A stretch of 64,000 nt of DNA from an uncultured Candidatus Saccharibacteria bacterium (GTDB lineage: Bacteria > Patescibacteriota > Minisyncoccia > Phycocordibacterales > UBA918), in the NCBI GenBank assembly GCA_964350985.1, contig CAYGLK010000001.1, forward strand, positions 292,528 to 356,527, given 5' to 3'. The position numbers were made by a program, and so were the translations under genes. Under the pieces are notes generated by a model, which searched no databases, was not told the origin of the DNA, and worked only from the letters and a program-made list of their open reading frames with translations. This document shows positions 688-59,169 of this stretch, piece after piece (position 1 is the stretch's first letter; every line of letters starts with the position of its first letter).

Positions 688-3564
688 TTACGCTTCTTTA
701 ACGATCATATTTAAGATTCTACCCGGAACATAAACAGTCTTAATTTTTGCTGTACCGGCTATTCTAGCCTTTAAATCATGGTTATTATCAACTTCTGCCA
801 AGGCCTCTTCTTCAGTTGCTGTTGGGGAGATTGTGATTGATCCCCGGAGTTTTCCGTTGATCTGAACGCCAATAGTAACACTCTCGTCCACAATCAAATC
901 TGGGTTAACAACTGGAAAAGTCTCAAGGTGAATTGAGACATTCTGTCCATTTTGATGCCAAAGTTCTTCTGTGAGGTGTGGTGCAAAGGGTGCCAATAGT
1001 TTTAAAAACTGACGGTAACCGCCTTCACTGACACCCTCCTTTTCTGCCTTATTAATAAAGATCATCATCGTACTGACGGCAGTATTAAATTTAAATCCTT
1101 CGATATCCTCAGTCACTTTTTTGATTGATTTGTGTAAAAGTGTGGTTACAGACTGATTTTCCTGCTCAGTTATATGAGAATCTAGGCCATAAACTCTCTC
1201 TAAGAAGCGTCTAGCACCAACTAAACCGTCCTGACTCCAGGCGATGGTGTTTTCAAACGGACCCATAAACATCTCGTAGACTCTAAGTGTATCTGCTCCA
1301 ACAAGTTTTACAATATCGTCAGGATTGATCACATTCCCCCACCTCTTACTCATTTTGCGACCATCCTCCGCTAAGATAAACCCTAAAAATTCCAACCTCT
1401 GGAATGGTTCGATAGTACTGACTACTCCAATATCATATAGGAATTTATGCCAAAAACGAGCATATATTAGGTGTCTAACAGCATGGTCTCCGCCAACATA
1501 CACATCAACCGGAGCCCAAGCTTTTTCTATTTCTTTAGACACAAGTTCACTTGTATTTCTTGGATCCATGTATCTAAGGTAATACCAAGAAGAACCAGCC
1601 CACTGAGGCATGGTGTTTGTCTCGCGTTTAGCTTCAATTAAAGTTACTCCTTCTGGAGCTGTGTCTGAAACAATAAAGTCTCCTTGCTCAGTTACATAGC
1701 CGGTGACATTAACCCAATTTTCAATTGTAGCTAAGGGCGATTGTCCATCTCCAGCCGGTTCATAGTGTTCAACTTCAGGCAGCGTTACTGGTAGCTGATT
1801 TTGGGCAATAGGATATACCGCACCTTCTTTAGTGTGTACGACAGGAATTGGTTCACCCCAGTATCTTTGTCTACTAAATACCCAGTCTTTTATTTTGTAA
1901 GTTTTTGCTATTCTTCCATCAACTTTTTTAACTATTGCTTCTCCAGCCTCTTCTGAGTTCATTCCGTCAAATTCTCCTGAGTTTATTAATTTTCCTTCCG
2001 CAGTATAGACTCTATTTTTTAGGTGTAGTTTAAAAAATTCTAAATGATGATTAAAGAAACTTTTATTTGAAAGTATTTCTTCTGCAGAACACCAGGTTCC
2101 TTTCTTTGTTTCTTCATCAATTATTTCTCTTCTAGTATCACCACTTAGTTCAATTAAGTAACATGTATCTGAACATAATTCTTCTCTACTCTTTCTTGAC
2201 TTATATCCACGACTGTACTGGGAGGATATGTACTTAATATTTTTAATCTCCGTGTAGCCAGATTCTTCAGTTAGTTCACGTATGGCAGTTTCTTCGCCAG
2301 TCTCATTCTCTTCTCTACTCCCTCCAACAAATCCACATAAATTATCTGTAAAAGTTACCACATAGTATTTATCTTCAGACCAATGTTTAGCAATAACCGT
2401 AGACGCTTTAAATTGATGGATATCTTTGTCTGTTTGTGGAGCATCCTTTCCCGTTAAAACTACGTAAGGAGCAACAACATCAATAATGTTTAATCCAAAT
2501 TTTTTAGCAAAAGCATGATCGCGCTCATCATGCGCTGGTACAGCCATAATAGCTCCAGTTCCATAACTAGCGAGTACATAGTCAGCTAGATAAACAGGAA
2601 TAACTTCCCCATTTACGGGGTTAGTTGCAGTTACGCCTTCAAGCAACACTCCAGTTTTTTCCTTGGTGTCGTCTAGTCTGTCCATCTCCTTTTTTTCAGC
2701 TGTCTTTTTAATATAGGCTTCTACTTCATTCCAATTTTTAATTAACCCTTTGTTCTTTGAAACTAAATTATGTTCAGGCGCTAACACTAAATAAGTAACG
2801 CCAAAAAGCGTATCTGGCCTAGTTGTAAATACTGTAACTTTGTCAGAGGTAGAAAGTGTGAAATCTATTTCAGCGCCCTCGCTTCTGCCAATCCAGTTTC
2901 TCTGTGCTTCTTTGATATGTTCTGGCCAAGTTAGGGTGTTTAGATCTTCTAACATACGATCAGCGTAAGCTTTGATATCTAAGATCCACTGCCGCATTGG
3001 TTTTTTTTCCACTACTGAACCGCAACGCTCGCAACTACCATCACTCTCCAGGTCTTCGTTTGCTAGACCGGTCTGACAACCAGGACACCAGTTAATCGGT
3101 TCATAACTTTGAGTTGCTAAACCTTTTTTGAAAAGCTGGATAAATATCCACTGTGTCCATTTATAAAATTCTGGATCGGTGGTATTTATTTCACGATCCC
3201 AGTCATAATCAAAACCAAGTATTTCAAGCTGTTTTTTAAAGCGGGCTACGTTTGTTGCTACTGCTGCACTAGGGTGAACTTTATTTTTGATAGCATAATT
3301 CTCAGCCGGTAGACCAAAAGCATCCCAACCCATGGGGTGCAAGACTTCATGTCCGGTCATTCTTTTGAATCTGGAGTAAATGTCAGTAGCGATATAACCT
3401 TTTGGGTGGCCAACATGCAATCCTTCTCCAGAGGGATAAGGGAACATATCCAGCACATAAGTCTTCGGTTTATTAGACACTTCGTCTACTTTATAGATAT
3501 TTTTCTCACGCCAAGTATTTTGCCACTTCTTTTCAATTTCAGCTGAGTCGAATTTTTTATGCAT
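688..3564 (-). CDS. leuS: leucyl-tRNA synthetase, carrying an inserted Nudix hydrolase domain
   Basis: 958 aa. Class I HIGH motif (HVGH near aa 50) and KMSKR are present. Editing-domain motifs TTRPDT and AHDERDHAFA are present, and the C-terminal anticodon-binding region is typical of bacterial LeuRS. About 135 extra aa follow the editing domain and contain a perfect Nudix box. Confidence 0.95.
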   Translation of the reverse strand: MHKKFDSAEIEKKWQNTWREKNIYKVDEVSNKPKTYVLDMFPYPSGEGLHVGHPKGYIATDIYSRFKRMTGHEVLHPMGWDAFGLPAENYAIKNKVHPSAAVATNVARFKKQLEILGFDYDWDREINTTDPEFYKWTQWIFIQLFKKGLATQSYEPINWCPGCQTGLANEDLESDGSCERCGSVVEKKPMRQWILDIKAYADRMLEDLNTLTWPEHIKEAQRNWIGRSEGAEIDFTLSTSDKVTVFTTRPDTLFGVTYLVLAPEHNLVSKNKGLIKNWNEVEAYIKKTAEKKEMDRLDDTKEKTGVLLEGVTATNPVNGEVIPVYLADYVLASYGTGAIMAVPAHDERDHAFAKKFGLNIIDVVAPYVVLTGKDAPQTDKDIHQFKASTVIAKHWSEDKYYVVTFTDNLCGFVGGSREENETGEETAIRELTEESGYTEIKNIKYISSQYSRGYKSRKSREELCSDTCYLIELSGDTRREIIDEETKKGTWCSAEEILSNKSFFNHHLEFFKLHLKNRVYTAEGKLINSGEFDGMNSEEAGEAIVKKVDGRIAKTYKIKDWVFSRQRYWGEPIPVVHTKEGAVYPIAQNQLPVTLPEVEHYEPAGDGQSPLATIENWVNVTGYVTEQGDFIVSDTAPEGVTLIEAKRETNTMPQWAGSSWYYLRYMDPRNTSELVSKEIEKAWAPVDVYVGGDHAVRHLIYARFWHKFLYDIGVVSTIEPFQRLEFLGFILAEDGRKMSKRWGNVINPDDIVKLVGADTLRVYEMFMGPFENTIAWSQDGLVGARRFLERVYGLDSHITEQENQSVTTLLHKSIKKVTEDIEGFKFNTAVSTMMIFINKAEKEGVSEGGYRQFLKLLAPFAPHLTEELWHQNGQNVSIHLETFPVVNPDLIVDESVTIGVQINGKLRGSITISPTATEEEALAEVDNNHDLKARIAGTAKIKTVYVPGRILNMIVKEA

Positions 3565-3644: not shown

Positions 3645-4547
3645 CTACTCAGTGACCCGATCGAAACAATAATTTCCTTGCTTGTAGTTCCAGTTTTCTG
3701 CATTTTTAATCAGAGCGTCTTTATCCATCACTGGTCGATAGTAGAAGTCTTCTTGTGTGTCGTTTGAATTACTTGAGAAATAAGCGCAAAGTTTAAAACC
3801 GGTCTCAGTTACTTCGTAAATATAGTCTGGACGGTCTTCTGGAGCCGCTGGTACAGGAAATTCACCATATAGTTCTTCAAGTGTTCTCGGCAACTCACTA
3901 CTATCAATACTCACCTTCTCCTCTATTCGCCATTGAATTTGTCTCAAATCTTTAATTTGTGTCTGATCTAATCTTCTTTCTCGTGTTTCTGTTGGGTTTT
4001 CTGTCTGCATAAAACCAAAAACAAGGGATGCTAGTACTACAACAATTGCTCCTAGGGCATACATTTTTGATTCCTTTTCTCTAGTTAACCAATAGCCACG
4101 AGTATCCTGGAGGTAATAGTAGAAAGCAGCACCGATAACTACAAGTAAGACAGCTGCCTTTAGGATAAACCTAGTAGTGATTTCACCGTTTAGAAAAGCT
4201 AGGATGATACTAACCAAATCACCAAGAAGTACTCCTCCACCAATAAGTAGCGACAGATAGATTAGCCACTTTGTTAGTCCCAGGTATACATGATTAGTTT
4301 CTTGTCGGTGAATCTTATTTACTTTACGTGTCAAAGCCAAGTATGTAGGAAAAAAGACAACTAACATAGCAATGGCTATTTTTAGGCTCTCTCTAGAACT
4401 TTCTACTTGCCAATAACTATCAATAGCATCAGGGTAAAGTAAATTGATGATACTAAAAAGTAAAACAATTAAAAATGTGATTGATAAATATAAAGTTACT
4501 AATGATCCTAGTTGTAGGACAAAGTTTTTTGCTGTGTTATTTTCCAT
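3645..4547 (-). CDS. hypothetical integral membrane protein (multi-TM N-terminal half, soluble C-terminal half)
   Basis: 300-aa ORF. Several hydrophobic helices in aa 10-190, then a charged soluble tail. No recognisable catalytic motif. Confidence 0.5.
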   Translation of the reverse strand: MENNTAKNFVLQLGSLVTLYLSITFLIVLLFSIINLLYPDAIDSYWQVESSRESLKIAIAMLVVFFPTYLALTRKVNKIHRQETNHVYLGLTKWLIYLSLLIGGGVLLGDLVSIILAFLNGEITTRFILKAAVLLVVIGAAFYYYLQDTRGYWLTREKESKMYALGAIVVVLASLVFGFMQTENPTETRERRLDQTQIKDLRQIQWRIEEKVSIDSSELPRTLEELYGEFPVPAAPEDRPDYIYEVTETGFKLCAYFSSNSNDTQEDFYYRPVMDKDALIKNAENWNYKQGNYCFDRVTE

Positions 4548-4892: not shown

Positions 4893-4929
4893 CCGCCCGA
4901 TAAATATCGGGCGGCTTTGTCATTCTTTC
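4893..4929. terminator. rho-independent terminator (bidirectional hairpin)
   Basis: GCCGCCCGATAAATATCGGGCGGC is a perfect 9-bp GC-rich stem, followed by TTTGTCATTCTTTC. It sits between convergent genes. Confidence 0.75.
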
Positions 4930-5203
4930 ATGTCTGAAGGTCGCTTTTGTAATAGATGGCTATTGTTCCATCAGAGTGCTTCACTGATAAATAATAGCCA
5001 TTATCTTCGACAGGGTCCTTGATAAATGGGTAGTAGTTTACAACTACACCAAGTTCTTCGACCCTGGGAGCGACTAGCGAGCGCGGCCAGGGGTTTTTGA
5101 AAGCTGCTAGGGTTTTTGTGCTCAAATCAGGCCCAGTGACAATCCTCATCTCTGGCTTAAGTTGCTGCGTATAGCTTCGCGGTAGTTGCGTTTGGCCGTC
5201 CAT
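4928..5203 (-). CDS. hypothetical protein
   Basis: 91-aa ORF with no recognisable motifs. Slightly higher GC than its neighbours. Confidence 0.35.
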   Translation of the reverse strand: MDGQTQLPRSYTQQLKPEMRIVTGPDLSTKTLAAFKNPWPRSLVAPRVEELGVVVNYYPFIKDPVEDNGYYLSVKHSDGTIAIYYKSDLQT

Positions 5204-5349: not shown

Positions 5350-6447
5350 CTAAATCATGAACTCAATCACGTCGCCGTCTTTTACTATATAATCCTTGCC
5401 TTCTGTACGCAGCTTCCCTTCCTCACGAGCAGTTTTAAGTGAACCACACTCTACTAAGTCGTCAAAAGTAACAACTTGAGCTCGGATATACTTCTTTTCA
5501 AAATCTGTATGTATTGCAGCTGCAGCTTTTGGTCCTGGTGAACCAATTGGAACTGTCCAAGCGCGGGTTTCTTTTTCGCCAGTCGTAAAATAACTCATTA
5601 ATCCTAGACGGTTGTAACAAGCACGGATCAAACTCTCAACACCGCTTCCTTGAGCTCCATATTCCCTTCTAAAATCGTTTTTTTCATCATCACTCATGTC
5701 ACGTAAGTCATGTTCCATTCCAGCGTCAACCACAACATATTCAGCTCCAGTTCTCTCAAAATATTCAACTAGATTTTGCCACCTTTCATCATTTTGTTCA
5801 TCAAGATTAAAGGCGTCTGTTTTTTTGTTGCAGACATACAAGAACGGCTTCATTGTCAGTAAGTGAAGTCCCTTGATTATCTTAGCTTCTTCTTCAGTAA
5901 CTTCGAGCATATTAGCTAGGTTTCCACCGTCTAGGTGTGGCTTGAGGCGAGCTAATACTCCTTGTTCAATAACAGCTGTCTTATCACCGCGCTTTGCGTC
6001 ACGCTCAACGTTCATTAACCTTTTTTCTACAGTTTCAGCGTCAGCCAGAATAAGTTCTAAGTTAATCACTTCAATGTCAGAAAGTGGATTAATCCCCCCA
6101 GAGACATGGTGGATATCACTATCTTCAAAAATACGGACCACCTCTGCAATCATGTCCGTCTCACGAATATTTGCTAGAAATTTGTTCCCCAATCCTTCTC
6201 CTGAAGCAGCACCAGCTACTAACCCTGCAATATCAACAAATTCTACAATGGCCGGAATGATTTCCTGTGAACCAGATATCTTTGATAAGGCAGCTAAACG
6301 ACCATCTGGAACAGCCACGACTCCAACTGATGGATCGATAGTTGCAAAAGGATAGTTGGCAATTAATACTTCATTTTTAGTAAGGGCAGTAAAAAGCGTA
6401 GACTTCCCTACGTTTGGTAAACCAACTATTCCAACAGATAATGACAT
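5350..6447 (-). CDS. ychF: ribosome-binding ATPase YchF (Obg-like GTPase family)
   Basis: N-terminus GIVGLPNVGKSTLF (G1 motif). DxxG and NKxD-like motifs are present. The C-terminal TGS domain ends ...GKDYIVKDGDVIEF. Collinear with E. coli YchF over the full length. Confidence 0.95.
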   Translation of the reverse strand: MSLSVGIVGLPNVGKSTLFTALTKNEVLIANYPFATIDPSVGVVAVPDGRLAALSKISGSQEIIPAIVEFVDIAGLVAGAASGEGLGNKFLANIRETDMIAEVVRIFEDSDIHHVSGGINPLSDIEVINLELILADAETVEKRLMNVERDAKRGDKTAVIEQGVLARLKPHLDGGNLANMLEVTEEEAKIIKGLHLLTMKPFLYVCNKKTDAFNLDEQNDERWQNLVEYFERTGAEYVVVDAGMEHDLRDMSDDEKNDFRREYGAQGSGVESLIRACYNRLGLMSYFTTGEKETRAWTVPIGSPGPKAAAAIHTDFEKKYIRAQVVTFDDLVECGSLKTAREEGKLRTEGKDYIVKDGDVIEFMI

Positions 6448-6516: not shown

Positions 6517-7371
6517 CTATTGCTTCCTTCCCTTTTCCCAGAAATTTAATTTTGCATACTCATCTGCAAAGTTACCTAAAACGTCTCTCCAGTCAGATTT
6601 AACCGGCTTAACATGTTGGCGGATTGTGTGGAGATCAGTAAAGCCGTGGAAAAAGTCATCCTCGATTGTTGTTTGGGCAACATTTGTAAAGTCGTGAGGG
6701 TATTTTTTTTCACCGAGAAAAGCATAAATCTGATCCAGTACTTTTGTAGGGTTGGTAGTTAGTTCATCAAAAAAAACAAAGTGCATTCTATCTCCATACC
6801 CACGCTGTAAGGCGTCTTTGACGCGATTGTAAGCACTTCCGATAGGTTGGTTGGTTTTTAACCAGACCTTACAACGCTCTTCAACTGTTTGAAATTCATT
6901 TGGGTGTTGTTTTTCTTGAGATATCTGCCCTGTTCTAGATTCTTTGCGCCATAATTTTTCAAAACTAGAAAGTACGTCGCGAATATCTCTAACACAAACC
7001 AGTACTTTGGCCTTATGACCTAGTATCTCTTCCCCCATTTCCAAAAAGCCTGGCCAACCGCGTGATTTATCAAAAATAACAGGTGCTTTTATGTCAGAGT
7101 AGAAAGAAAACAGCATTGCCCGTAAAACTCTCAGTTTAGCGGGGTTATTTCGTACTGCTTTAAAGGCAGCGATAGCGTTCCAGTTGTTTCTGATAGCCAG
7201 AAGCATATCAAGTACTCCAGAGGTTGCAGTAGCATGGAAACGAGGGTTTTGGTTAAGGATATTACACAAAAGAGTGGACCCGCTTCTTGGTAGACCTGAT
7301 ATAAAATGAAACTTTCTTTGTGAGTCTAGAACTTCACTTGGCATTATTGAAGGTTTTTCCGTGTTTTGCAT
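6517..7371 (-). CDS. sulfotransferase family protein
   Basis: PRSGSTLL matches the PAPS 5'-phosphosulfate-binding loop, and RDxRDVxxS lies downstream as in the 3'-phosphate-binding region. 284 aa. Confidence 0.55.
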   Translation of the reverse strand: MQNTEKPSIMPSEVLDSQRKFHFISGLPRSGSTLLCNILNQNPRFHATATSGVLDMLLAIRNNWNAIAAFKAVRNNPAKLRVLRAMLFSFYSDIKAPVIFDKSRGWPGFLEMGEEILGHKAKVLVCVRDIRDVLSSFEKLWRKESRTGQISQEKQHPNEFQTVEERCKVWLKTNQPIGSAYNRVKDALQRGYGDRMHFVFFDELTTNPTKVLDQIYAFLGEKKYPHDFTNVAQTTIEDDFFHGFTDLHTIRQHVKPVKSDWRDVLGNFADEYAKLNFWEKGRKQ

Positions 7372-7428
7372 GGCTCTATTATAGCTTGAGTAGGTTCAAA
7401 TACAACTTAAGCACATATTTTAATAAAA

Positions 7429-7899
7429 ATGGCTAAATCCAGGAACAAAAATGATAGTATTGAGTGTATGGAAAAGCTAAGTCAATTACTAATCGAAAAT
7501 CAATCATTTTTGAGTAAATGTCAGGCTCGGGCTGTTTATTGTAGAAAATCCATCAGCTCAGTCGAATCAGATTTTCACAAACAATACGGATCCTTTTCAT
7601 CCTACTGGGATGACTGGCTAGAAGAAGTTGAAGAGATTAAATTTGATCTTGAAGACAGTATTTCAAATACTACGTTGTTTCTAAGTGAACTAAAAGATTA
7701 TATAAATAACTATACTGACAAAAAACGCCACACCAAGTCTGATAAAGAGTATCACTTAGAAGTTATTGCTCTAACTCAAGGTAAGTTAATAGAGCAGCAG
7801 GCATTAGTAAAGGATGTAGATTTTAGAATAAACCTTCACAAACAGATGACTGAAAAACTAACTCAGGTTGAACGAATTGAAGAACTAAATGACGATTAG
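7429..7899 (+). CDS. hypothetical coiled-coil protein
   Basis: 156-aa charged, helical ORF, divergent from the sulfotransferase gene. Confidence 0.4.
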   Translation: MAKSRNKNDSIECMEKLSQLLIENQSFLSKCQARAVYCRKSISSVESDFHKQYGSFSSYWDDWLEEVEEIKFDLEDSISNTTLFLSELKDYINNYTDKKRHTKSDKEYHLEVIALTQGKLIEQQALVKDVDFRINLHKQMTEKLTQVERIEELNDD

Positions 7900-7958
7900 T
7901 TTCTTTTAAATAAGATTCTGAAATAACACTTATTGGTGTACAATATTGAGTAATACTT

Positions 7959-8990
7959 ATGGCTTTTTATAGTCCGCGGAAAATAATAATCAAGTTAACT
8001 ATCGCAGTTGTACTGATTGTTTTTGTGTTTATTGCAGCAGTATATTTTTTAACCAGAGAGCTTGTCATTAAACCAGCTCTTTTAACTGAGGAAAAAATAT
8101 CACAGTCAGAAGAATTGGATCTGCCACCACCATTCCCAACTGGAGTTGATTTAAAAGCAGAATCAATAACTGAGTATCCTGACCTTGATATTTACATTGA
8201 GAGTAATCTATCTTTTGATCAAAATAATTCTAGAAAAGATCAATTTTTTGATCGTCTTCTGGCTAAGTTAGTACAGTGGGACTGGTATCAAAACTTAGCT
8301 TCATCAGTTAGCCGTATCTTAGTTATATATTCTGGAGAAAGACAAGAAGAAATTGTCAAAAACTTTACTGATATTTTAAAATGGAATGAAGAAGAGAGTG
8401 AGTTATTTTATCTTTATATAAGCGAAGCTGAACCTACCTTGTCTGAAGGAAAATTTTATCCTGGTCGTTATGTTGTTCCTTATGATGCAACTCCTGAAAT
8501 GGTGGCTGATCTTTTATATGAGCGATTTGAAAAAGAGGTCTTGGAACGATATACAATTGAAGTTATTGAAAAGGTTCCACTTAATACAGCTTTAACAGTT
8601 GCCTCGTTACTTGAAAGAGAAGCTTATGACTTTGTTGATATGCGTTATATCTCGGGTATCATTTGGAATCGACTATTTATAGATATGCCTCTTCAGTTGG
8701 ACGCTACTCTTCAATACGCTAGAGGTAGTCAAAGTTATGAAGCAAAATGGTGGCCTAAAGTTGTACCAAAAGATAAGTTTATTGAGTCTCCTTACAATAC
8801 ATATGAAAACACTGGTCTACCACCAGGACCGATAGCAAACCCATCTGTTGAATCAATCATTGCGGCTCTAAATCCCAGGCAGACAAACTGCATGTTTTAT
8901 TTCCATGACGCAAAAGGAAAATTTTACTGCACTGAAACTTATGCAGAACACGTAGCCAAACTTAAAGAAGTTTACGGAAGAGGAAGCTAG
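7959..8990 (+). CDS. mltG: endolytic murein transglycosylase MltG (YceG-like)
   Basis: N-terminal TM helix. The C-terminal block NTYENTGLPPGPIANPSVESIIAALNP...YFHDAKGKFYCTETYAEH matches the MltG/YceG signature. Confidence 0.75.
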   Translation: MAFYSPRKIIIKLTIAVVLIVFVFIAAVYFLTRELVIKPALLTEEKISQSEELDLPPPFPTGVDLKAESITEYPDLDIYIESNLSFDQNNSRKDQFFDRLLAKLVQWDWYQNLASSVSRILVIYSGERQEEIVKNFTDILKWNEEESELFYLYISEAEPTLSEGKFYPGRYVVPYDATPEMVADLLYERFEKEVLERYTIEVIEKVPLNTALTVASLLEREAYDFVDMRYISGIIWNRLFIDMPLQLDATLQYARGSQSYEAKWWPKVVPKDKFIESPYNTYENTGLPPGPIANPSVESIIAALNPRQTNCMFYFHDAKGKFYCTETYAEHVAKLKEVYGRGS

Positions 8991-9055
8991 ATTATGTAAA
9001 AGAAATCGCTGTCAGAGACAACGATTTCTTTTCTTTTAACTAAAGATTAAATTCT

Positions 9056-9670
9056 CTAACAAGACTTCTTTCCTAGATTTTCAACTTCTTTTAGCCACTT
9101 ACCTCTGACTGTATCAGTCACCTTCTCACATGGACCAAATGAGCTTACTTCGGTACGAATACCTGCAAACTCCATGATGCCGTATTGGATTTCGTTTGTG
9201 TAGTCACCAAACTGCCACCAAGTCTTGAACGGACTGTGAGAGCCGGAAAGAATAATTACTCTAGCTGTCTTCCCTTTTAAGTGTTGCTCAATTTTCTTAG
9301 TTTGTTTGTTAAAGTTAAAAGCAAAACCAGGCAACCAGAATCGATCAAATAGTCCTTTGAGTAAAGCTGGCATTGAACACCACCAGTTTGGGTAAACAAT
9401 AACAATATGATCAGCTGCTCTAAACTTTTCTTGGAGGGCTATTAAATCTGGTTCAAGATGTTGAATTTCTTTGTATCCTTTGTGAAGAATTGGGTCAAAC
9501 TGTAGGTCACCTAGATTTGCTCTTTCTACATTGTGTCCGGCATCTTCTGCTCCCACCTGATAATGATCTGCCACTGTACCAGTGAAAGAATCTTTATCGG
9601 GATGTCCGCAAAGGACCAGAATATTTTTTGGGTTTTGCATATCGTCTAAGTATAACGGAACAAGTCGCAA
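9056..9670 (-). CDS. flavodoxin-like NAD(P)H-dependent oxidoreductase (Flavodoxin_2 / quinone reductase family)
   Basis: ILVLCGHPDKDSFTG near the N-terminus and WWCSMPALLKGLFDR are typical of FMN-dependent NAD(P)H dehydrogenases. The true start may be the internal Met at ~9640. Confidence 0.6.
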   Translation of the reverse strand: MRLVPLYLDDMQNPKNILVLCGHPDKDSFTGTVADHYQVGAEDAGHNVERANLGDLQFDPILHKGYKEIQHLEPDLIALQEKFRAADHIVIVYPNWWCSMPALLKGLFDRFWLPGFAFNFNKQTKKIEQHLKGKTARVIILSGSHSPFKTWWQFGDYTNEIQYGIMEFAGIRTEVSSFGPCEKVTDTVRGKWLKEVENLGKKSC

Positions 9671-10197: not shown

Positions 10198-11727
10198 ATG
10201 TTAAGAAAAGTATGGAGTTACAAATATACTAAAGCTATCTTGAGTGTTTTGGCAGTGTTTATTTTAGCGCTAATTATTAGGGGCGGAAATGGTTCTGATA
10301 CTACTACAGCCAAAGACGAAAAATTCCCTCTGGTGACTGTAACAACACCGCTGGCCTATACAGATGCTGGTACCTTGTCTCTTATAGGCTCAGTCCGCGC
10401 TTTTACTGAAGCAGAGATCACTGCAGAAGTTGGTGGTCGGGTGACAAGTGTCAATGCAAAACTTGGTCAGCAAGTACAAGCTGGTCAAATTTTGGTTACC
10501 ATCGAAAATGCCAGTGAGCGCGCTCAATTACTTCAAGCTGAAGGAGTATACGAGGCTGCACAAGCCGCAGCCGCATCAAGTGTTGTTGGTACCAAGGAGG
10601 CAGAGATAAGACTATCTGACGCTAAAAACACATTGTCTGTGTCTATTAGCACTGCATATACCACCGCTCAGAGTGTTGTAATAAATACTCTTGATAGTAA
10701 CTTTTACGCCGGACCAAACAGTACTTACCCTTCACTAAGAATAAATACTTTAGGAAATAGTGAATTTTTAAGAAGTGAGAGATTAGATTTTCAAACTGTA
10801 CTTCCAAAACTACAAAGTAATTCCCTCCTTGCTTCTTCTGAAGCCAATCTAAAAGAAACTGCAGAGTATGCAACTGTTCAACTTAAGCGAATTTTAACTG
10901 TTACTGATATCTTTTTAGATGTTGTAAATGATTTAAAAAACAACGACCAATTTACTGAACCACAAAAAACTCAACTCAATAGTGATTTAAATACAGCTCG
11001 AAGTTCTCTAGTTTCTACTATCAGCAACTTAGAAAGAAATCTCCTTGCACTTAAGTCAGCAGAAGAAGGTTTGGAGAAAGCTCAAATCAGTGCCACTGGC
11101 GGTATTGCTTCGGCGTCTGAAGCTCAACTTAAGCAAGCTTTAGGTTCTCTTAGAGCAGCTCAAGCTAATTATGCTAAAACAATCCTCCGAACTCCAATTA
11201 GTGGCACTGTCAACTCTATATCAATACAAAGTGGCGATTTTATTTCAGCGTTTACAAATGTAGCAGTTGTAGCTAACAACTCAGCTCTAGAAGTGGTTAC
11301 TTTTGTCGGTGATCTGGAAAGGAGTGTTTTGAACATCGGTGATAAAGTACTTATTGAAAATAACTACGAAGGTACCATCACTCAAATTGCCCCAGGGGTT
11401 GATAGTGCAACACGAAAGACAGAGGTACGTATTGCTACTGAGGATGCCAATATTAAAAATGGAGACACAGTAAAGATAACTAACTATAGTGAAGAAGCTA
11501 CCACTACCCTTAAAGAGATCAGGGTACCTCTAACAGCCGTTAAGTTTGAGATTGAAGACGGCTCTATCTTTACAGTTCGTGAAGGTAAGTTGGTAAACCT
11601 GCCAGTAAAACTAGGGAGCATTAGCGGCAACTCAGTTGTTGTTTTAGAAGGACTTAGTGCCAATGATGAGTTTGTAGTTGATGCGCGTGGCTTGTTAGCA
11701 GGGACTCAAGTTGAAGTAAAAAATTAG
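10198..11727 (+). CDS. efflux RND transporter periplasmic adaptor subunit (membrane fusion protein, HlyD family)
   Basis: N-terminal TM. The lipoyl/beta-barrel signature ...ITAEVGGRVTSVNAKLGQQVQAGQILVTIE... is present, along with a long coiled-coil hairpin and RTPISGTVNSISIQSGDFIS. Lies immediately upstream of an RND permease, with a 2-nt gap. Confidence 0.85.
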   Translation: MLRKVWSYKYTKAILSVLAVFILALIIRGGNGSDTTTAKDEKFPLVTVTTPLAYTDAGTLSLIGSVRAFTEAEITAEVGGRVTSVNAKLGQQVQAGQILVTIENASERAQLLQAEGVYEAAQAAAASSVVGTKEAEIRLSDAKNTLSVSISTAYTTAQSVVINTLDSNFYAGPNSTYPSLRINTLGNSEFLRSERLDFQTVLPKLQSNSLLASSEANLKETAEYATVQLKRILTVTDIFLDVVNDLKNNDQFTEPQKTQLNSDLNTARSSLVSTISNLERNLLALKSAEEGLEKAQISATGGIASASEAQLKQALGSLRAAQANYAKTILRTPISGTVNSISIQSGDFISAFTNVAVVANNSALEVVTFVGDLERSVLNIGDKVLIENNYEGTITQIAPGVDSATRKTEVRIATEDANIKNGDTVKITNYSEEATTTLKEIRVPLTAVKFEIEDGSIFTVREGKLVNLPVKLGSISGNSVVVLEGLSANDEFVVDARGLLAGTQVEVKN

Positions 11728-11729
11728 TT

Positions 11730-14700
11730 ATGTGGGAATTTTTTATTAAGAACAATCGCTTCACGTATTTGATTTTATTAGCCTTAATGGGTATTGGTAC
11801 TTACTCATTAGTTGCAATACCAAAAGAATCTTCACCTGAGGTGGTGATTCCTGTTGGAATAGTGACTACTACTCTACTTGGGGCACCAGCTGCTGATATA
11901 GAATCATTAGTGACTAATGAGGTTGAAAGAGGTCTAACAAATCTTGAAAATGTTTCCAAAATAACTTCCACTTCTAGAGAAGGATTGTCTTCTGTCGTGG
12001 TTGAATTTGAAGCCTCAGCTGATTTGGACGAATCTATTGCCGATCTTAAAGACGCTGTTGATCGTATAAAGCAAGATTTACCTTCTGATGCTAACGACCC
12101 TTTCGTGTCTGAAGTTAATTTTGTTGACCAACCGATTTTAACCATTGCTGTCGCTTTAGATATTAGCGACACTGACTTCACTGCTTTATCAAAAAAAGTG
12201 GAAACAGCTATTGAGTCAGTTAGTGGTGTTTCCCGAGTAGAAGTAAGTGGGGTTAGAGACCGGGAGGTTGCGATTATTGTTGATCAAGCGTCTTTAGCTA
12301 GATTCGACCTATCTCTTAGTGAGATTATTAATGCAGTGAGAAACTCCAATCTTACTTTACCAATCGGACAGATTGTAAATGACGGAGTATCGTACAACGT
12401 TGCTTTTGAGGGAGATATTAATGACACTTCAGAGATTAGAAACATTGCTATCACAACCCGTGGTGGCCAACCGGTATTTTTAAAAGACGTTGCTGTTATT
12501 GAAGACGGCTTAGCTCCGGCTACTAGAATTTCTAGACTAAGTGTAGAGCAAAAACCATCAGTTCACTCAATTGCATTTGATGTATATAAGAGATCTGGTG
12601 GTGATATCACAGTGATTGCCAATGAAGTGAACCGACTGATAGAAGATCTCAAGCAGCCAGAAGGTATTTTGGCTGGAGCAACCACAAAAACTATTCTTGA
12701 TGCCGGTAATCAAATTAAAAAAGATCTAATTAGACTCTCCAGTTCTGGTGTACAAACTGTCATTCTAGTAGTCCTTCTCTTGATAGTTACTATTGGCTGG
12801 CGCGAAGGGTTTTTGGCTGGTCTAGCTATTCCTCTCTCTTTCCTGTTTGGTTTTATTGGACTTTATTTTTCAGGTAATACTATCAATTTTCTCAGTCTTT
12901 TTTCTCTCATTTTGGGTATTGGTATTTTAGTTGACTCAGCGATTGTGGTGGTAGAGGGAATAAACAAAAAAATGAAAGACAATCCCCTGATTGACAAACT
13001 AGAGGCAGCAACCCAAGTTACCAAGGAATTTTCTAGTCCAATTATTTCAGGCACACTGACGACAGTATCTATGTTTGTTGGGCTCTTTATTGTCTCTGGT
13101 GTGATTGGTCAGTTTATCTCGAGTATTCCCTTCACTCTAATCTTCTTACTTTTTGCTTCATTATTTGTTGCTCTGGCAATGTTGCCTTTATTTGCAGCTA
13201 CTTTTCTTAAACGACGCAGTGCTACTAAATTTGAGCAGAAACAAGTTGAGTATGCTCATGCGGCCGAGAGTAAATATAGAAAGTTTTTAGAATCATATCT
13301 AGATGATTCTAAAAAACAAGATAAGTTCTTAGCCCTGATATTTGCACTTCTGGTACTCGCTCTCTTCTTACCGGTAAACTTATTCGGCGGTATTATTGCA
13401 GCTCCAATTACTTATATAGTATTAGTCAGGTTAGCTACCTATCAACGTCAAAAGGGTTTTGGTAGTTTGAAACGCTCACTTATCTTTATACCTACACTAT
13501 TTGTCACTGTAGCTGTTTCTTTTATGGTGGCTAATACTCTAGTCCCAGCACTTAATTTAGTAAAAGTGACCTTTTTCTCACAAAGTGATGTCGACTTTAT
13601 TATTGTTGAAGTTGAAAAACCAGAAGGAACAACTAAAGAAATCACTGATGTAGTAGTACGGAGAGTTGAGGAAGTTTTGTATCAAGAAAATGAAATTGAG
13701 TCATTTACTGTAACTGTTGGCAGCGGTAGTCAGTTTGTTGGTGGTGGCACTGGAGAAAAGTTTGCTAACATCTTCATAAATTTAAAGCTTGATCGAGAAA
13801 GAACCAGTACAGAAATTGTAGAAGACTTAAGAGATAAGTTTTCTCCCTTTAATGACGCTAGAGTGACTGTTAACCAACCGAGTGATGGACCACCAACGGG
13901 AGCAGCGATTATTGTGAAGTTTCTTGGTGATGATTTAGCGGAAATTACTAGACTAGCTAATCAATCGTCTCAAATATTTAGTTCTCTAGATAATGTGGTT
14001 AACGTTGAAACTAGTACCAATAACAATAGTACGGAGTTTGTCCTCGATTTGGACCGTGAAAAAGCAGCTTCACTTGGACTTAATCCCTTCGCTATCTCAC
14101 AGATTGCTAGAACCGCTGTATTTGGTACTGAAGCCACTTCTCTGACAACCTTAGACGAAGACATAAAGGTGATGGTTAAACTCAATGTAAATAATTCAAC
14201 TACCGTTCAAAATGATACAGCCAGTACCATGTCTATTGCTGATCTTTCTAATATCAGTATTCCAACCCAAAATGGGGGTGTTGCTTTGTCTGAGCTAGTG
14301 ACAATTAGTTTAAGAGAATCGAGTTCAGTGATAAATCACGAAGATAGAAAACGGGTGGTGACAGTAACAGCTGACGTTACTGGAGATGGTAATGCACGTG
14401 AAATTCAAGCGATGGCTCTCGAGCGCATCAATAATGAACTAGATGTGCCAGATACGGTGATTATTAGTACTGGCGGGGGTGAGTCTGATGAATCAAACCA
14501 AGCTTTTGCCGAAATGCTTTTCGCCTTGATTGTCGGTATAGTTTTAATGGTTGGAGTATTAACTCTGCAATTTAATTCATACCTCCACATGCGCTACGTT
14601 CTATCAATTTTGCCATATTCGCTTATTGGTATTATGTTTGGTCTAGCTATCACTCAGAACCCTCTCTCCTTCCCTTCTATCATGGGCTTTATTGCACTGT

Positions 14701-14996
14701 CTGGTATTGTAGTAAATAACTCTATCCTACTGATTGATAGTATGAACCAAGCTAGGCGCAAGTATCCGGAAATGCCAATCAAGGATGTTGTCTTGGACTC
14801 AGCTAGCAGTAGACTAAGGCCGATTCTCTTGACTACGCTAACAACAGTCATCGGTATGATACCGCTAACTTATGCGGGTGATCTTTGGGCACCACTTGCT
14901 TATGCGGTGATGTTTGGACTGGCCTTTTCTGTGGTCATTACATTGATTCTAATCCCTATTATCTACAGTAAGCGACCAGGAACTCTGACAAAGTAA
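11730..14996 (+). CDS. efflux RND transporter permease subunit (AcrB/HAE family)
   Basis: 1088 aa. Two blocks of about six TM helices alternate with large periplasmic loops, which is the typical AcrB architecture. Confidence 0.9.
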   Translation: MWEFFIKNNRFTYLILLALMGIGTYSLVAIPKESSPEVVIPVGIVTTTLLGAPAADIESLVTNEVERGLTNLENVSKITSTSREGLSSVVVEFEASADLDESIADLKDAVDRIKQDLPSDANDPFVSEVNFVDQPILTIAVALDISDTDFTALSKKVETAIESVSGVSRVEVSGVRDREVAIIVDQASLARFDLSLSEIINAVRNSNLTLPIGQIVNDGVSYNVAFEGDINDTSEIRNIAITTRGGQPVFLKDVAVIEDGLAPATRISRLSVEQKPSVHSIAFDVYKRSGGDITVIANEVNRLIEDLKQPEGILAGATTKTILDAGNQIKKDLIRLSSSGVQTVILVVLLLIVTIGWREGFLAGLAIPLSFLFGFIGLYFSGNTINFLSLFSLILGIGILVDSAIVVVEGINKKMKDNPLIDKLEAATQVTKEFSSPIISGTLTTVSMFVGLFIVSGVIGQFISSIPFTLIFLLFASLFVALAMLPLFAATFLKRRSATKFEQKQVEYAHAAESKYRKFLESYLDDSKKQDKFLALIFALLVLALFLPVNLFGGIIAAPITYIVLVRLATYQRQKGFGSLKRSLIFIPTLFVTVAVSFMVANTLVPALNLVKVTFFSQSDVDFIIVEVEKPEGTTKEITDVVVRRVEEVLYQENEIESFTVTVGSGSQFVGGGTGEKFANIFINLKLDRERTSTEIVEDLRDKFSPFNDARVTVNQPSDGPPTGAAIIVKFLGDDLAEITRLANQSSQIFSSLDNVVNVETSTNNNSTEFVLDLDREKAASLGLNPFAISQIARTAVFGTEATSLTTLDEDIKVMVKLNVNNSTTVQNDTASTMSIADLSNISIPTQNGGVALSELVTISLRESSSVINHEDRKRVVTVTADVTGDGNAREIQAMALERINNELDVPDTVIISTGGGESDESNQAFAEMLFALIVGIVLMVGVLTLQFNSYLHMRYVLSILPYSLIGIMFGLAITQNPLSFPSIMGFIALSGIVVNNSILLIDSMNQARRKYPEMPIKDVVLDSASSRLRPILLTTLTTVIGMIPLTYAGDLWAPLAYAVMFGLAFSVVITLILIPIIYSKRPGTLTK

Positions 14997-19358: not shown

Positions 19359-19431
19359 GTGGACCCGAGAAGATTCGAACTCCCTGCCTCCTCAGTGCAA
19401 ATGAGGCGCTCTACCAAGTGAGCTACGGGCC
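19359..19431 (-). tRNA. tRNA-Ala (anticodon UGC)
   Basis: The reverse complement folds as a cloverleaf with a 7-bp acceptor stem (GGGCCCG/CGGGTCC) containing the G3:U70 Ala identity pair. D-stem GCTC/GAGC. Anticodon stem CCTCA/TGAGG with loop TTTGCAC. T-loop TTCGAAT. CCA is not encoded. Confidence 0.9.
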
Positions 19432-19470
19432 CAGTTAAAACATGTGAACCCGCCTATAATACGAGGTCTG

Positions 19471-22687: not shown

Positions 22688-25327
22688 TTACAACACTTTC
22701 TTCAGGTATTGTCCGGTATAGGAGTCTTTATTAGCAGCTACTTGTTCTGGGGTTCCTTTGGCAACTATATTTCCGCCACCTAAACCTCCTTCAGGTCCGA
22801 CATCTATGATGTAGTCAGCACACTTTACCAAGTCTAGATTGTGTTCAATGACCATTACTGAATTACCTTGGTTTACTAATTTTTGGAGGATTTCAATTAA
22901 TTTTTTAACATCATCGTAATGAAGCCCAATAGTTGGTTCATCGAGCATATAAAGTGTCTTTTGAGTATGTGGCTTATAGAGCTCAGAAGCGATCTTAACT
23001 CGCTGTGCTTCACCGCCAGAAAGAGTGGTAGCACTTTGCCCTAGCTCTAAGTACCCCAGTCCTACTTCAATTAATGAACCAAGGCGTTCTTCAATTGAAG
23101 GTACATCTTGAAAGAATCTATGTGCTTCTTCAATAGTCATATGTAACACCTCCCAGATATTTTTCTTTCGGTAAGTTACCTCTAAAGTCTCTTTAGTAAA
23201 ACGCTTTCCATCACAGACATCACAAGTAACGTAAACTGTAGGCAAGAAGTGCATCTCTACCGCGATCTCTCCGTTACCCTGACAAGCTTCACAACGGCCA
23301 CCTTTAACATTGAAACTAAAGCGCCCTGGCTTCCAACCTCTGGCTCTAGCTTCGCCTGAGGCTGCGAACATATCACGGATGTGAGTGAAAGCACCTGTGT
23401 AAGTAGCTGGGTTACTACGTGGAGTTCTTCCAATTGGTGACTGGTCGATCAAGCAAGAACGCCCGATGTATTCTGTACCAGTAAAAGTTGAACAATTATA
23501 TGTATGCGGAGTACGATGTTTTTTATCTAATCGAGACTTGAGGTTCCGATCGACTATCTCATACATGAAGGTAGACTTACCCGATCCAGAGACTCCAGTA
23601 ACGCAAACTAATTTTCCTAAAGGAATATCAACATTAAGGTTTTTAATATTAAATATTTTTCCACCTCTAATCTTAATCGAACCTTTTTCACTCTCGCGTC
23701 TATCTGGTACAGCAATTTTTTTATCACCACGAAGATAATCTAAGGTCACTGACTTGGTATTATTTTTCGGTGCTGCTAAGAGTTTATCCAAATAATCAGC
23801 CACCATAACTTCCCCGCCATGAACTCCGGCTCCAGGTCCAATGTCGATCAGATAGTCAGCAGCATAGATTGTGTCCTCATCATGCTCAACTACAATAATT
23901 GTATTACCTAGATCCCGAAGTTCAGTCAAAGTCTTGATCAAACGATCGTTATCGCGTTGATGCAGACCAATAGTCGGCTCATCAAGAACATATAGTGCTC
24001 CTACAAGCCCTGAACCAAGCTGTGAAGCCAGTCTAATACGTTGTGCTTCTCCACCCGAGAGCGTGTTAGCGCGACGTTCTAGGGTTAGATACTGAATACC
24101 AACATTATTCATAAACTGAAGCCGTTCAATAATTTCACGAAGAGCTGGCCAAGCTATATCTTGTTGTTTTTTAGAAAGTTTTAGTCCGTCAATAAACTTA
24201 GTCGCTTCAGCGACGGTCATGTGAGTAAAAGCAACGATATTGATACCAAGATCTTTTTTACCGTCACCTCCAAGATAAACTCGAAGAGCTTCAGGACGAA
24301 GCCGCGCTCCCTTACAAACAGGACATTCGTCACTTTGAAAGATACCGACAACTCCAAGTCCGTTACATTCAGGACAGGCTCCGTAGGGTGAGTTAAATGA
24401 AAATAGTCTGGGTTCTACTTCAGGAAAAGAAGAACCATCTATTGGACAAATAAACTTTGCTGACATCGTTCGAGATGTACCATCAGGACTTTCAATTTTT
24501 ACCAGGCCACCAGATTCTTCTAAGGCTCTTTCAACTGCTTCAGAAAGTCTTTCTCGAGAGTTTCGTGAATCATCAGTAAATTCACTAACGTATATTTCGT
24601 CAACTAAAACATCAATATCGTGCCTTTTTGTCTTAGTTAACTCAATTTTCTCTCGTAGCTGTTTTACTACGCCGTCAATTTTAACGACTTCATATCCTTT
24701 TCCAAGTAGATCATAAAGTAATTGGTAGTATTCTCCCTTACGTCCTACTACTACAGGTGAGAAAATAGACACTCGCCCCTTTGAAAGCTCTATACCCATC
24801 ACTTTTTGTGAACTTTTTTTCTCGGCTGCTTTTACTTCTTTATCTTCAATAGATTGAAGAATAATACTTAAAATTTCATCTTGAGAAAGACGCATGATTG
24901 GAACATCTACATCTAGGCAGTAAGGTTGTCCGACTCGAGCATAAAGAATACGAAGATAGTCGTAGATCTCGGTTATAGTGGCTACAGTTGAACGCGGGTT
25001 TCTAGAGGCTGACTTTTGATCAATTGAAATAGCTGGCGAGAGACCACTAATTTCATCAACGTCTGGTTTTTGTAGCTTATTTAAAAATTGTCTCGCATAA
25101 GGAGATAATGATTCAACATAACGTCTCTGACCTTCAGCAAAGATAGTATCGAAAGCCAACGATGACTTACCTGAACCAGAAGGTCCAGTGATAGCAATCA
25201 TCTTTCCACGCGGCATCTCAACATCAATATTCTTTAAGTTGTGAGTACGGGCACCGCGAATAACTATCTTGTTTCCAGGTGTATCTGACTCCAGTGCTTG
25301 TTTTTTAGTATTTTTTTTATCAGCCAT
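22688..25327 (-). CDS. uvrA: excinuclease ABC subunit A
   Basis: Two ABC ATPase modules ([10 protein letters not shown] and [10 protein letters not shown] Walker A; LSGGEAQR signatures twice). Zinc-finger Cys clusters are present. N-terminus [20 protein letters not shown] is typical UvrA. Confidence 0.95.
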
Positions 25328-25401
25328 AACCTACTTCAGCAAACAGCTGAATTTAAAGTTTTCTCATTATAACGGTTATTCCTTTAGTCTGCAAAATAAG
25401 C

Positions 25402-27723: not shown

Positions 27724-27759
27724 TTGTTTAAATTATACACTCTTCTTTACCTTTTTTGG

Positions 27760-29835: not shown

Positions 29836-29984
29836 AGCTAGAGTATAGCGTGATATTAATGATTAAAAAAGCAAGATGAGGCATTTACTGTACCTCAATT
29901 ATTTATGGTATTTAAAAAAACAAACACCACCCCGATGAATTGGAATGGTGTAAAATAAAGCTCAATAACAACCCCCAAAGAAAC

Positions 29985-46792: not shown

Positions 46793-46834
46793 AACCGTTC
46801 CTATTATTGTACACGACTATTTTCTAAAAGTGCC

Positions 46835-48526: not shown

Positions 48527-48611
48527 TATATCCCATCACTATATAATAATAGCAGTAATTTATAAGAGTTTTTTACTGGTTATCAACACTTAATAGTAGT
48601 ATTTCGAATCT

Positions 48612-59073: not shown

Positions 59074-59169
59074 AATAATGAGCTATTTTTAATATTTTTT
59101 ACTTCATCTACTATTGTATCTAATTATGCATCTACTTATGCACCAGTTATACACATTCTTGTTAACAGT

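Follow-up and report, generated by a model that had tools for sequence, protein, structure and literature searches.

A predicted Nudix hydrolase domain carried as an exchangeable cassette in the editing domain of a Patescibacteria leucyl-tRNA synthetase

Aminoacyl-tRNA synthetases (aaRS) are among the most conserved enzymes, and the accessory domains they carry are usually appended and best known from eukaryotes. Patescibacteria, also named Candidate Phyla Radiation (CPR), form a very large, still poorly understood bacterial radiation of nucleotide scavengers. This study addresses leuS, the gene of a bacterial-type leucyl-tRNA synthetase (LeuRS), in a stretch of 64,000 nucleotides (hereafter the window) of contig CAYGLK010000001.1 from an uncultured member of this group, and in particular a Nudix domain inserted in the CP1 editing domain of the enzyme.

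The closest described relatives of the whole protein are the solved bacterial LeuRS of Escherichia coli (4AQ7, 5OMW), Thermus thermophilus (2BTE, 1H3N) and Neisseria gonorrhoeae (7NU8). An AlphaFold2 model of the protein, built from a 55-sequence alignment (mean predicted local distance difference test, pLDDT, 85.7), matched the E. coli and T. thermophilus enzymes with a Foldseek E of ~1e-72, and the fold is alike throughout this group (template-modelling score to the target 0.74-0.81), with which the protein also shares the position of CP1, the HIGH and KMSKS motifs and the editing motifs. Unlike the protein studied here, the solved enzymes (targets of 770-880 amino acids) have no domain in the CP1 hairpin. 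As regards the insert, the comparison is with free-standing Nudix hydrolases, i.e. the MutT/nudix protein of Enterococcus faecalis (2AZW), NudI (3OGA, 6DT3), 3I7U, YmfB (3DKU), MutT (3A6S) and RppH, which are 17-24% identical to it; in contrast to them, the insert is embedded in another enzyme and both its termini meet at the hairpin.

Two further kinds of system are relevant. Diadenosine tetraphosphate (Ap4A) made by an aaRS is paired with a hydrolase acting in trans, Nudix-type in the case of lysyl-tRNA synthetase (LysRS) and NUDT2 in animals, with RppH/NudH and ApaH in bacteria. Recombining cassettes within conserved genes are known from the target-recognition domains of type I restriction hsdS and from the central domains of flagellins and pilins. 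With somewhat better than even confidence, we favour for the present locus a working bacterial LeuRS whose CP1 hairpin tip carries a complete Nudix pyrophosphohydrolase domain, exchanged as a cassette.

Position and predicted fold of the insert

The host gene is recognised by the bacterial LeuRS model TIGR00396 (leuS_bact) with 941.6 bits against a curated cut-off of 548.4, the match being broken in two by the insert, and Pfam places in the protein tRNA-synt_1, the editing domain PF13603, Anticodon_1 and NUDIX (PF00293, residues 410-508). Both active sites, synthetic and editing, appear intact, since the HIGH, KMSKS, T-rich and GTG motifs and the editing Asp are invariant in the 55 aligned relatives (Table 1).

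The loop between GLNII and NSGEF spans 166 amino acids, against 18-52 in close relatives without the insert, which makes roughly 115-150 extra residues. In the CP1 constructs of Mycobacterium tuberculosis (5agr) and Streptococcus pneumoniae (4k47), the aligned flanks are linked by ~4 residues, whose place is taken in this LeuRS by ~150. Because the flanks are so joined in the solved constructs, the insert is placed by alignment at the tip of a beta-hairpin inside CP1, the stalk strands of which are modelled at residues 367-369 and ~525-526. A first-pass annotation, made from the sequence alone, had counted ~135 extra residues, in agreement with this range, but had set them after the end of the editing domain; that position has to be corrected, as ~45 CP1 residues come after the insert and align with the C-terminal portion of the solved CP1 constructs.

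Residues 384-520 alone (nucleotides 2005-2415) match PF00293 with 46.5 bits (E=4.8e-12), and the full protein does so with 43.0 bits, the gathering score being 21.1. The Nudix box GSREENETGEETAIRELTEESGY follows the pattern G-x5-E-x7-R-E-U-x-E-E-x-G-U, its final U being Tyr, the residue most often found there among relatives; the predicted catalytic residues are E421, R429, E430, E433 and E434. In the whole-protein model the insert is among the best-modelled regions (pLDDT 87-96), and the order of strands and helices is that of the Nudix fold; modelled alone, it reached a pLDDT of 92.3 and a predicted template-modelling score of 0.85. The predicted structure is an alpha/beta/alpha Nudix sandwich with the box on a loop-helix-loop. 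Foldseek matches of this model, with E down to 8e-9, comprise the Aquifex Ap4A hydrolase 3i7u, NudI, YmfB, NUDT15, MutT, RppH and NudC, with the Nudix domain of NrtR (3gz8) also among the close ones, while the insert profile searched against PDB sequences returned NudI, MutT, CTPase and Ap4A hydrolases as top matches. The first-pass annotation had read here a complete Nudix domain with a residue-perfect box and intact catalytic glutamates, and the profile score, the confident models, the fold matches and the conservation and purifying selection described below all bear this out.

Occurrence and exchange of the cassette

A full-length search gave the 120 nearest LeuRS homologues, among the names of which are Candidatus Kaiserbacteria and Paceibacteria; ~75 of them are 920-1000 amino acids long with a precomputed PF00293 match, and the remainder measure ~800-840. 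In a scan of GTDB with one genome per species, ~74 of the best 80 loci, all from metagenome-assembled genomes and most carrying Patescibacteria/CPR names, have a Nudix domain at the same LeuRS site. These names include Paceibacterota/Parcubacteria, Moranbacteria, Taylor-, Magasanik-, Falkow-, Vogel- and Berkelbacteria and auto-labelled "Saccharibacteria"; a few loci with auto-assigned labels such as Clostridia or Gammaproteobacteria we take to be mislabelled. Hundreds of database LeuRS from Patescibacteria carry precomputed PF00293, and the architecture seems common in Patescibacteria/CPR. Full-text literature searches found no paper reporting a Nudix domain within any aaRS, LeuRS included, and tRNA synthetases go unmentioned in a 2017 survey of the Nudix clan. 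The initial remark that no described LeuRS with a Nudix insertion was known is therefore upheld as regards the literature, but any impression of rarity is not: the architecture seems undescribed although abundant in sequence databases, and the suggested search of homologues for the same insertion found it widely.

A HMMER search with the insert returned 100 relatives, the best of which are nearly all LeuRS. Among metagenome contigs, matches to the profile of this insert's type (N4, defined below) stronger than E=1e-8 all lie inside LeuRS, with one exception, and free-standing Nudix proteins (150-230 amino acids) occur among the weaker matches only. The exception, L097 (a 444-amino-acid open reading frame, ORF, on contig Ga0075530_1014812), has the hairpin stalk and Nudix cassette running into an RsmH/MraW-like methyltransferase; it is probably an assembly or frameshift artefact and was not used. 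Word-indexed searches with the insert alone or with a 32-insert profile gave hardly any matches, owing to the rapid divergence of the inserts. As the strong N4-profile matches lie in LeuRS and an X-loop motif is shared (see below), the comparison favours one or few ancient Nudix captures, followed by diversification and shuffling, over the recurrent uptake of unrelated Nudix genes.

Some LeuRS carry related Nudix domains at two more positions, one at the Rossmann/CP1 junction (~210-240 in query residues) and one at ~630. Extra-site or multiple Nudix domains were found in P0122, P0124, P0127, P0130, P0135, P0136 and P0137 and at loci L058, L070, L071 and L073; some LeuRS have two or three copies, tandem pairs included, with three in P0124 and at L071. 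Other domains accompany Nudix in a LeuRS of 1330 amino acids (P0203; Ham1/ITPase, PF01725, residues 984-1167), an isoleucyl-tRNA synthetase (IleRS) of 1345 (P0167; Nudix 270-396, His_Phos_1 665-809) and a class II fragment of 251 (P0156; HGTP_anticodon and Nudix). Two more relatives exceed the usual ~950 amino acids: P0066 (1147) is also annotated with PF06821 (Ser_hydrolase), and in P0074 (1107) the alignment after the cassette leaves NSGEF (QSSPYHIP...), which suggests a further insertion.

Within this group, the insert behaves as an exchangeable cassette uncoupled from the tree of the LeuRS core. Relatives are 75-83% identical to this LeuRS outside the insert and 15-28% identical to it within the insert, save for P0004 at 43%. 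Clustering of 82 inserts at 35% identity yielded 13 types, a minimum number for the deeply diverged forms present, the insert studied here being of type N4 together with six others. Insert identity and core identity are nearly uncorrelated (r=0.13), the median core identity is 0.767 for same-type pairs and 0.763 for pairs of different type, and a neighbour-joining tree of the LeuRS core shows the types dispersed among its branches.

The clearest instances come from close strains. P0024, with a Nudix domain of type N3, and P0048/P0051, with a 51-amino-acid loop and no Nudix, are 100% identical as proteins outside the loop. The flanking DNA of P0024 and P0048 is 98.1% identical over 1422 nucleotides on one side and 99.6% over 2539 on the other, the synonymous distance (dS) of the core is 0.067, and between the KKYDI and LINSGEFDG codons a 480-nucleotide segment in the P0024 type replaces an unrelated one of 151. 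Likewise, P0027 (type N0) and P0035 (type N2) have flanks 96-98% identical, a core dS of 0.14 and unrelated Nudix cassettes, and different cassettes are found at 93-94% core identity in the pairs P0007/P0009, P0068/P0085 and P0085/P0097. Of the independent pairs whose cores are at least 90% identical, about half have different loops, short non-Nudix loops included, and in the strain pairs the divergent DNA lies exactly between the equivalents of GLNII and LINSG. Where Nudix is absent the loop is still hypervariable, with 18-52 amino acids (P0002, P0028, P0033, P0041, P0048, P0056, P0060, P0063); P0033 has an unrelated 89-amino-acid insert in the CP1 hairpin, and P0060 and P0063 have cores 90% and loops 14% identical. 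The pattern is one of replacement rather than rapid drift, because each type is conserved internally. Its likely mechanism would be homologous recombination, with the conserved LeuRS motifs on either side as anchors.

Conservation, substrate class and alternative explanations

Conservation was assessed over 227 distinct, aligned LeuRS-embedded Nudix domains. The metal-binding Glu triad of REx2EE (box positions E16, E19 and E20) is kept in 220 of them (97%), despite the ~20% identity shared by different insert types, and the full box set of E7, R15, E16, E19 and E20 is present in 173 (76%). In two same-type pairs the nonsynonymous distance (dN) of the insert is 0.090 and 0.085, with dS ~2-3, and that of the core is 0.117 and 0.126; the inserts thus look constrained at least as strongly as the synthetase core, since their dN is below that of the core in the same pairs. 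Within-type dN/dS of the inserts is ~0.03-0.04, an approximate upper bound, as dS is saturated in the four genes compared. Given the retention of the Glu triad and these ratios, the embedded domain is probably catalytic. A neutral, fast-evolving junk loop was considered and rejected in view of the conserved box and fold and the same dN/dS.

Type N1, comprising ~18% of inserts, has a degenerate box (E to Q, R to A, G to A) and is nevertheless under purifying selection (dN/dS ~0.04), so that some lineages at least must have a role for the domain short of full catalysis. The domain could then be a nucleotide-binding sensor or structural module, like the Nudix domain of NrtR, tuning aminoacylation or editing or stabilising CP1. 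Some N3 inserts have, like N1, lost box E7, R15 and G22 with dN/dS still at ~0.04, the NrtR domain 3gz8 is a close fold match, and non-enzymatic Nudix proteins are a recognised class (PMC5389931). Such a reading is rather unlikely, however, as the Glu triad, present in 97% of inserts with N1 included, would be difficult to account for if no metal or phosphate chemistry were involved and the box of this particular insert is perfect; moreover, the near-identical strains that do without Nudix indicate that the domain is dispensable for CP1 stability.

The composition of the insert invites a different suspicion. Its GC content is 0.33, compared with 0.40 in the remainder of leuS, and GC at third codon positions (GC3) is 0.218 (nucleotides 1990-2478) against 0.324. 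Together with the sharp cassette boundaries between strains, this dip could point to an assembly chimera or frameshift, or to a selfish, intein-like mobile insertion without host function. That explanation is effectively refuted. The gene is read through in one frame, without the frameshift that the first-pass annotation had named as a refutation, and NCBI and Logan both hold the identical protein, on a 528-kb contig; furthermore, the architecture recurs in hundreds of independent assemblies, the fold is predicted with confidence, the catalytic residues are conserved and dN/dS is ~0.03-0.04. The GC3 dip is itself general, being seen at 70 of 75 loci (Wilcoxon p ~1e-12), with codon selection or a foreign source pool as possible causes. 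An intein or self-mobile element was likewise rejected: a Pfam scan of the insert shows Nudix only, without Hint or endonuclease domain, and the region around 1700-2800, cassette borders included, holds no flanking repeats beyond short chance-level matches.

If the favoured reading of a working LeuRS with an exchangeable Nudix enzyme is followed, the domain would constitute a second, independent Mg2+-dependent active site tethered to the synthetase, probably hydrolysing a small nucleotide pyrophosphate of the (deoxy)nucleoside triphosphate, (d)NTP, or dinucleoside polyphosphate (NpnN) class. The most economical candidates would be Ap4A, a plausible suggestion already made in the first-pass annotation, and related adenosine-containing NpnN (ApnN), which are aaRS side products, or damaged and non-canonical NTPs in an organism that salvages nucleotides. 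This latter, house-cleaning reading gains some support from the relatives P0203, P0167 and P0156 with their Ham1, His_Phos_1 and HGTP_anticodon partners. The X-loop is a determinant of substrate specificity in Nudix proteins, and in ApnA hydrolases a conserved X-loop Tyr downstream of the box stacks on adenine (PMC5389931). Most LeuRS-embedded copies have, in contrast to free-standing Nudix hydrolases, an X-loop motif of their own, [YF]x3Kx2N[RQ], common to most insert types (in the aligned columns of the 227 inserts, Y/F 174, K 203, N 174, R 142), which suggests a common origin and a common substrate class. In this protein Y454 lies 17 residues past the box in the first of these columns, where an aromatic residue is not exclusive to ApnA hydrolases. 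Within N4 the X-loop is conserved and very basic (R.YK.RK.REE.C.D, with R, K, R, K, E, E, C and D invariant).

Several points weigh against the favoured reading. The substrate assignment is a guess. All NCBIfam equivalog models considered on the insert, for MutT, RppH, YtkD, NudI, NudE and NudC, score far under their cut-offs, the best being TIGR02705 (YtkD/BsRppH) with 29.5 bits against 154.4, and the MutT 8-oxo-(d)GTPase models TIGR00586 and PRK10776 giving 17-20 bits against 98-148. The structural neighbours mix several substrate classes at similar scores, so that neither sequence nor fold assigns the domain to a single substrate subfamily, and this N4 insert retains Tyr and Lys of the X-loop motif, with E-E where the motif has N-R. 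To our knowledge, LeuRS is not a major producer of Ap4A. The degenerate box of N1 also belongs here. As for the exchange, a BLAST comparison of cassette DNA with all fetched loci turned up neither a near-identical donor cassette nor a recombination intermediate, and some of the evidence for swaps comes from metagenome contigs, including the short Logan contigs L001 and L085, in which chimeric joins at shared k-mers are possible.

The LeuRS editing domain binds the acceptor, or 3', end of tRNA, and the Nudix site might accordingly act like RppH on an RNA end, trimming tRNA(Leu), rather than on a free nucleotide; candidate targets would be a 5'-triphosphate, an Np4N cap, or a pyrophosphate or ADP-ribose placed by a toxin on the CCA end. 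RppH PRK00714 and TIGR02705 are the NCBIfam families matched by the greatest number of insert types (18 of 32 inserts each), but these matches are weak and far under the curated cut-offs (e.g. 29.5 vs 154 bits). The fold neighbours include structures of RppH and NudC, yet MutT, NudI and Ap4A hydrolases are equal or better by profile and fold. The strongly basic (R/K-rich) X-loop conserved within N4 would suit an RNA substrate, but the tRNA-facing orientation of the site is a supposition, and related Nudix domains at two other LeuRS sites and in IleRS argue against a role specific to the geometry of the tRNA end. This alternative appears distinctly unlikely.

Finally, a single loop is hypervariable in an essential enzyme whose other parts are 75-100% conserved, and it is replaced at the level of strains, features which recall a conflict or immunity module. 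Alternative Nudix, Ham1 and His_Phos inserts would destroy nucleotide toxins, signals or adenylate-mimic antibiotics directed at class Ia synthetases, and diversifying or balancing selection would drive cassette turnover. Consistent with this are the several insertion sites and multiple copies per protein, the other nucleotide hydrolase folds in relatives (Ham1 in P0203, His_Phos_1 and Nudix in the IleRS P0167), weak matches of 27 of the 32 inserts to the PADLOC candidate defence family PDC-S07, and the nucleotide antibiotic agrocin 84, which targets LeuRS (PDB 3zgz and 5ah5, among the structure matches). The PADLOC match, however, reflects generic Nudix similarity (E=4.6e-4 for this insert), no defence genes were seen adjoining leuS, and viral contigs searched with the N4 alignment yielded no copy of the cassette in phages; within types, moreover, inserts are conserved and not diversifying, and since short non-Nudix loops vary too, the site may simply tolerate indels and recombine. 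We regard this immunity function as very unlikely. A wider conjecture is also unlikely: the CP1 hairpin of Patescibacteria LeuRS, and to a lesser degree IleRS, would be a recombination-shuffled site of nucleotide-hydrolase modules (Nudix, Ham1, His_Phos) under balancing or diversifying selection, an intracellular immunity interface protecting translation in cis through destruction of nucleotide-based toxins, signals or adenylate-mimic inhibitors or through repair of tRNA ends modified by toxins.

Surroundings of leuS and comparison with known systems

The gene order YchF, small ORF, DUF5671 protein and LeuRS is common to this stretch and its relatives (Table 1). At locus L002 the counterpart of the neighbourhood upstream of leuS lies at 7046-9521, and downstream of leuS relatives have a sortase or a sigma-70-like gene. 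The 64-kb window holds neither a second aaRS nor a Nudix gene apart from leuS.

Table 1. Features of leuS and of the remaining window (positions in nucleotides of the window; residues are those of LeuRS).
Feature	Position	Strand	Remarks
leuS, bacterial-type leucyl-tRNA synthetase with insert	688..3564	(-)	958 amino acids, single uninterrupted ORF
HIGH motif of synthetic site (HVGH, residues 50-53)	3406..3417	(-)	invariant in the 55-sequence alignment
CP1 editing domain before insert (residues 222-366)	2467..2901	(-)	PF13603 profile positions 1-142 of 185
T-rich motif TTRPDT in CP1 (residues 247-252)	2809-2826	(-)	T247, T248, R249, D251, T252 invariant
GTG in CP1 (residues 335-337, within YGTGAIM)	2545-2565	(-)	G335, T336, G337 invariant
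AHDERD in CP1, with universal editing Asp D346	2518-2535	(-)	D346 invariant
Variable cassette, type N4: hairpin stalk and Nudix domain (residues 363-525, VVAPY...AEGK)	1990..2478	(-)	
Nudix alpha/beta/alpha fold (residues 382-516)	2017..2421	(-)	
Nudix box GSREENETGEETAIRELTEESGY (residues 415-437)	2254..2322	(-)	regular-expression match
Predicted X-loop SRGYKSRKSREELCSD (residues 451-466)	2167..2214	(-)	conserved aromatic and Lys
CP1 editing domain after insert (residues 524-570, GKLINSGEFDG...RQRYWG)	1855..1995	(-)	second PF13603/TIGR00396 stretch
KMSKS motif (KMSKR, residues 737-741)	1342..1356	(-)	K737, M738, S739, K740, R741 invariant in 55 relatives
DUF5671 membrane protein	3645-4547	(-)	directly upstream of leuS
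91-amino-acid ORF	4928-5203	(-)	no Pfam match; upstream of leuS
YchF GTPase	5350-6447	(-)	upstream of leuS
AcrB/RND-type transporter	11715-14993	(+)	1093 amino acids
tRNA-Ala(UGC)	19359-19432	(-)	sole tRNA and sole Rfam match in 64 kb
UvrA-like and UvrB genes	22691-25330 and 27763-29862	(-)	either side of the 776-amino-acid ORF
776-amino-acid ORF	25405-27732	(-)	no Pfam match at E<=1e-4
2064-amino-acid ORF	40625-46816	(-)	largest gene of window; no Pfam match at E<=1e-4
566-amino-acid ORF	46838-48535	(-)	no Pfam match at E<=1e-4
624-amino-acid ORF	57211-59082	(-)	no Pfam match at E<=1e-4

Should the domain be active, tRNA charging and proofreading would be physically linked to the hydrolysis of nucleotides or dinucleotide polyphosphates in nucleotide-scavenging organisms. 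Turnover of cassettes is unexpected in a housekeeping enzyme; it would imply that LeuRS is under a selective pressure not yet recognised, or else that the site tolerates insertions and recombines unusually readily. The CP1 hairpin might also be of use in protein engineering, as a natural scaffold for inserted domains.

Among described synthetases, a parallel is the IleRS with an N-acetyltransferase domain (NF040702, ileS_w_GNAT), which, to judge by the family name, also joins a class Ia synthetase to an unrelated small-molecule enzyme. The present case differs from it in having a Nudix and not a GNAT fold, in the position of the domain inside the editing domain and in its polymorphism between strains. 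In comparison with trans pairs of the LysRS/NUDT2 type, a synthetase capable of making ApnN and the fold class that degrades it are here in one polypeptide, the activity being putative, and the conserved X-loop Tyr that marks Ap4A hydrolases (PMC5389931) has only a loose counterpart in the insert. As in hsdS, flagellin and pilin cassettes, conserved flanks enclose diverged but internally conserved middles with a distribution uncoupled from phylogeny; those, however, determine surface properties or specificity, and the agents that select on them are known, whereas the host here is an intracellular, essential synthetase. The locus extends the known group of synthetases with accessory domains and shows a Nudix hydrolase in a setting not met before, and the exchange at the level of strains goes beyond a simple domain fusion.

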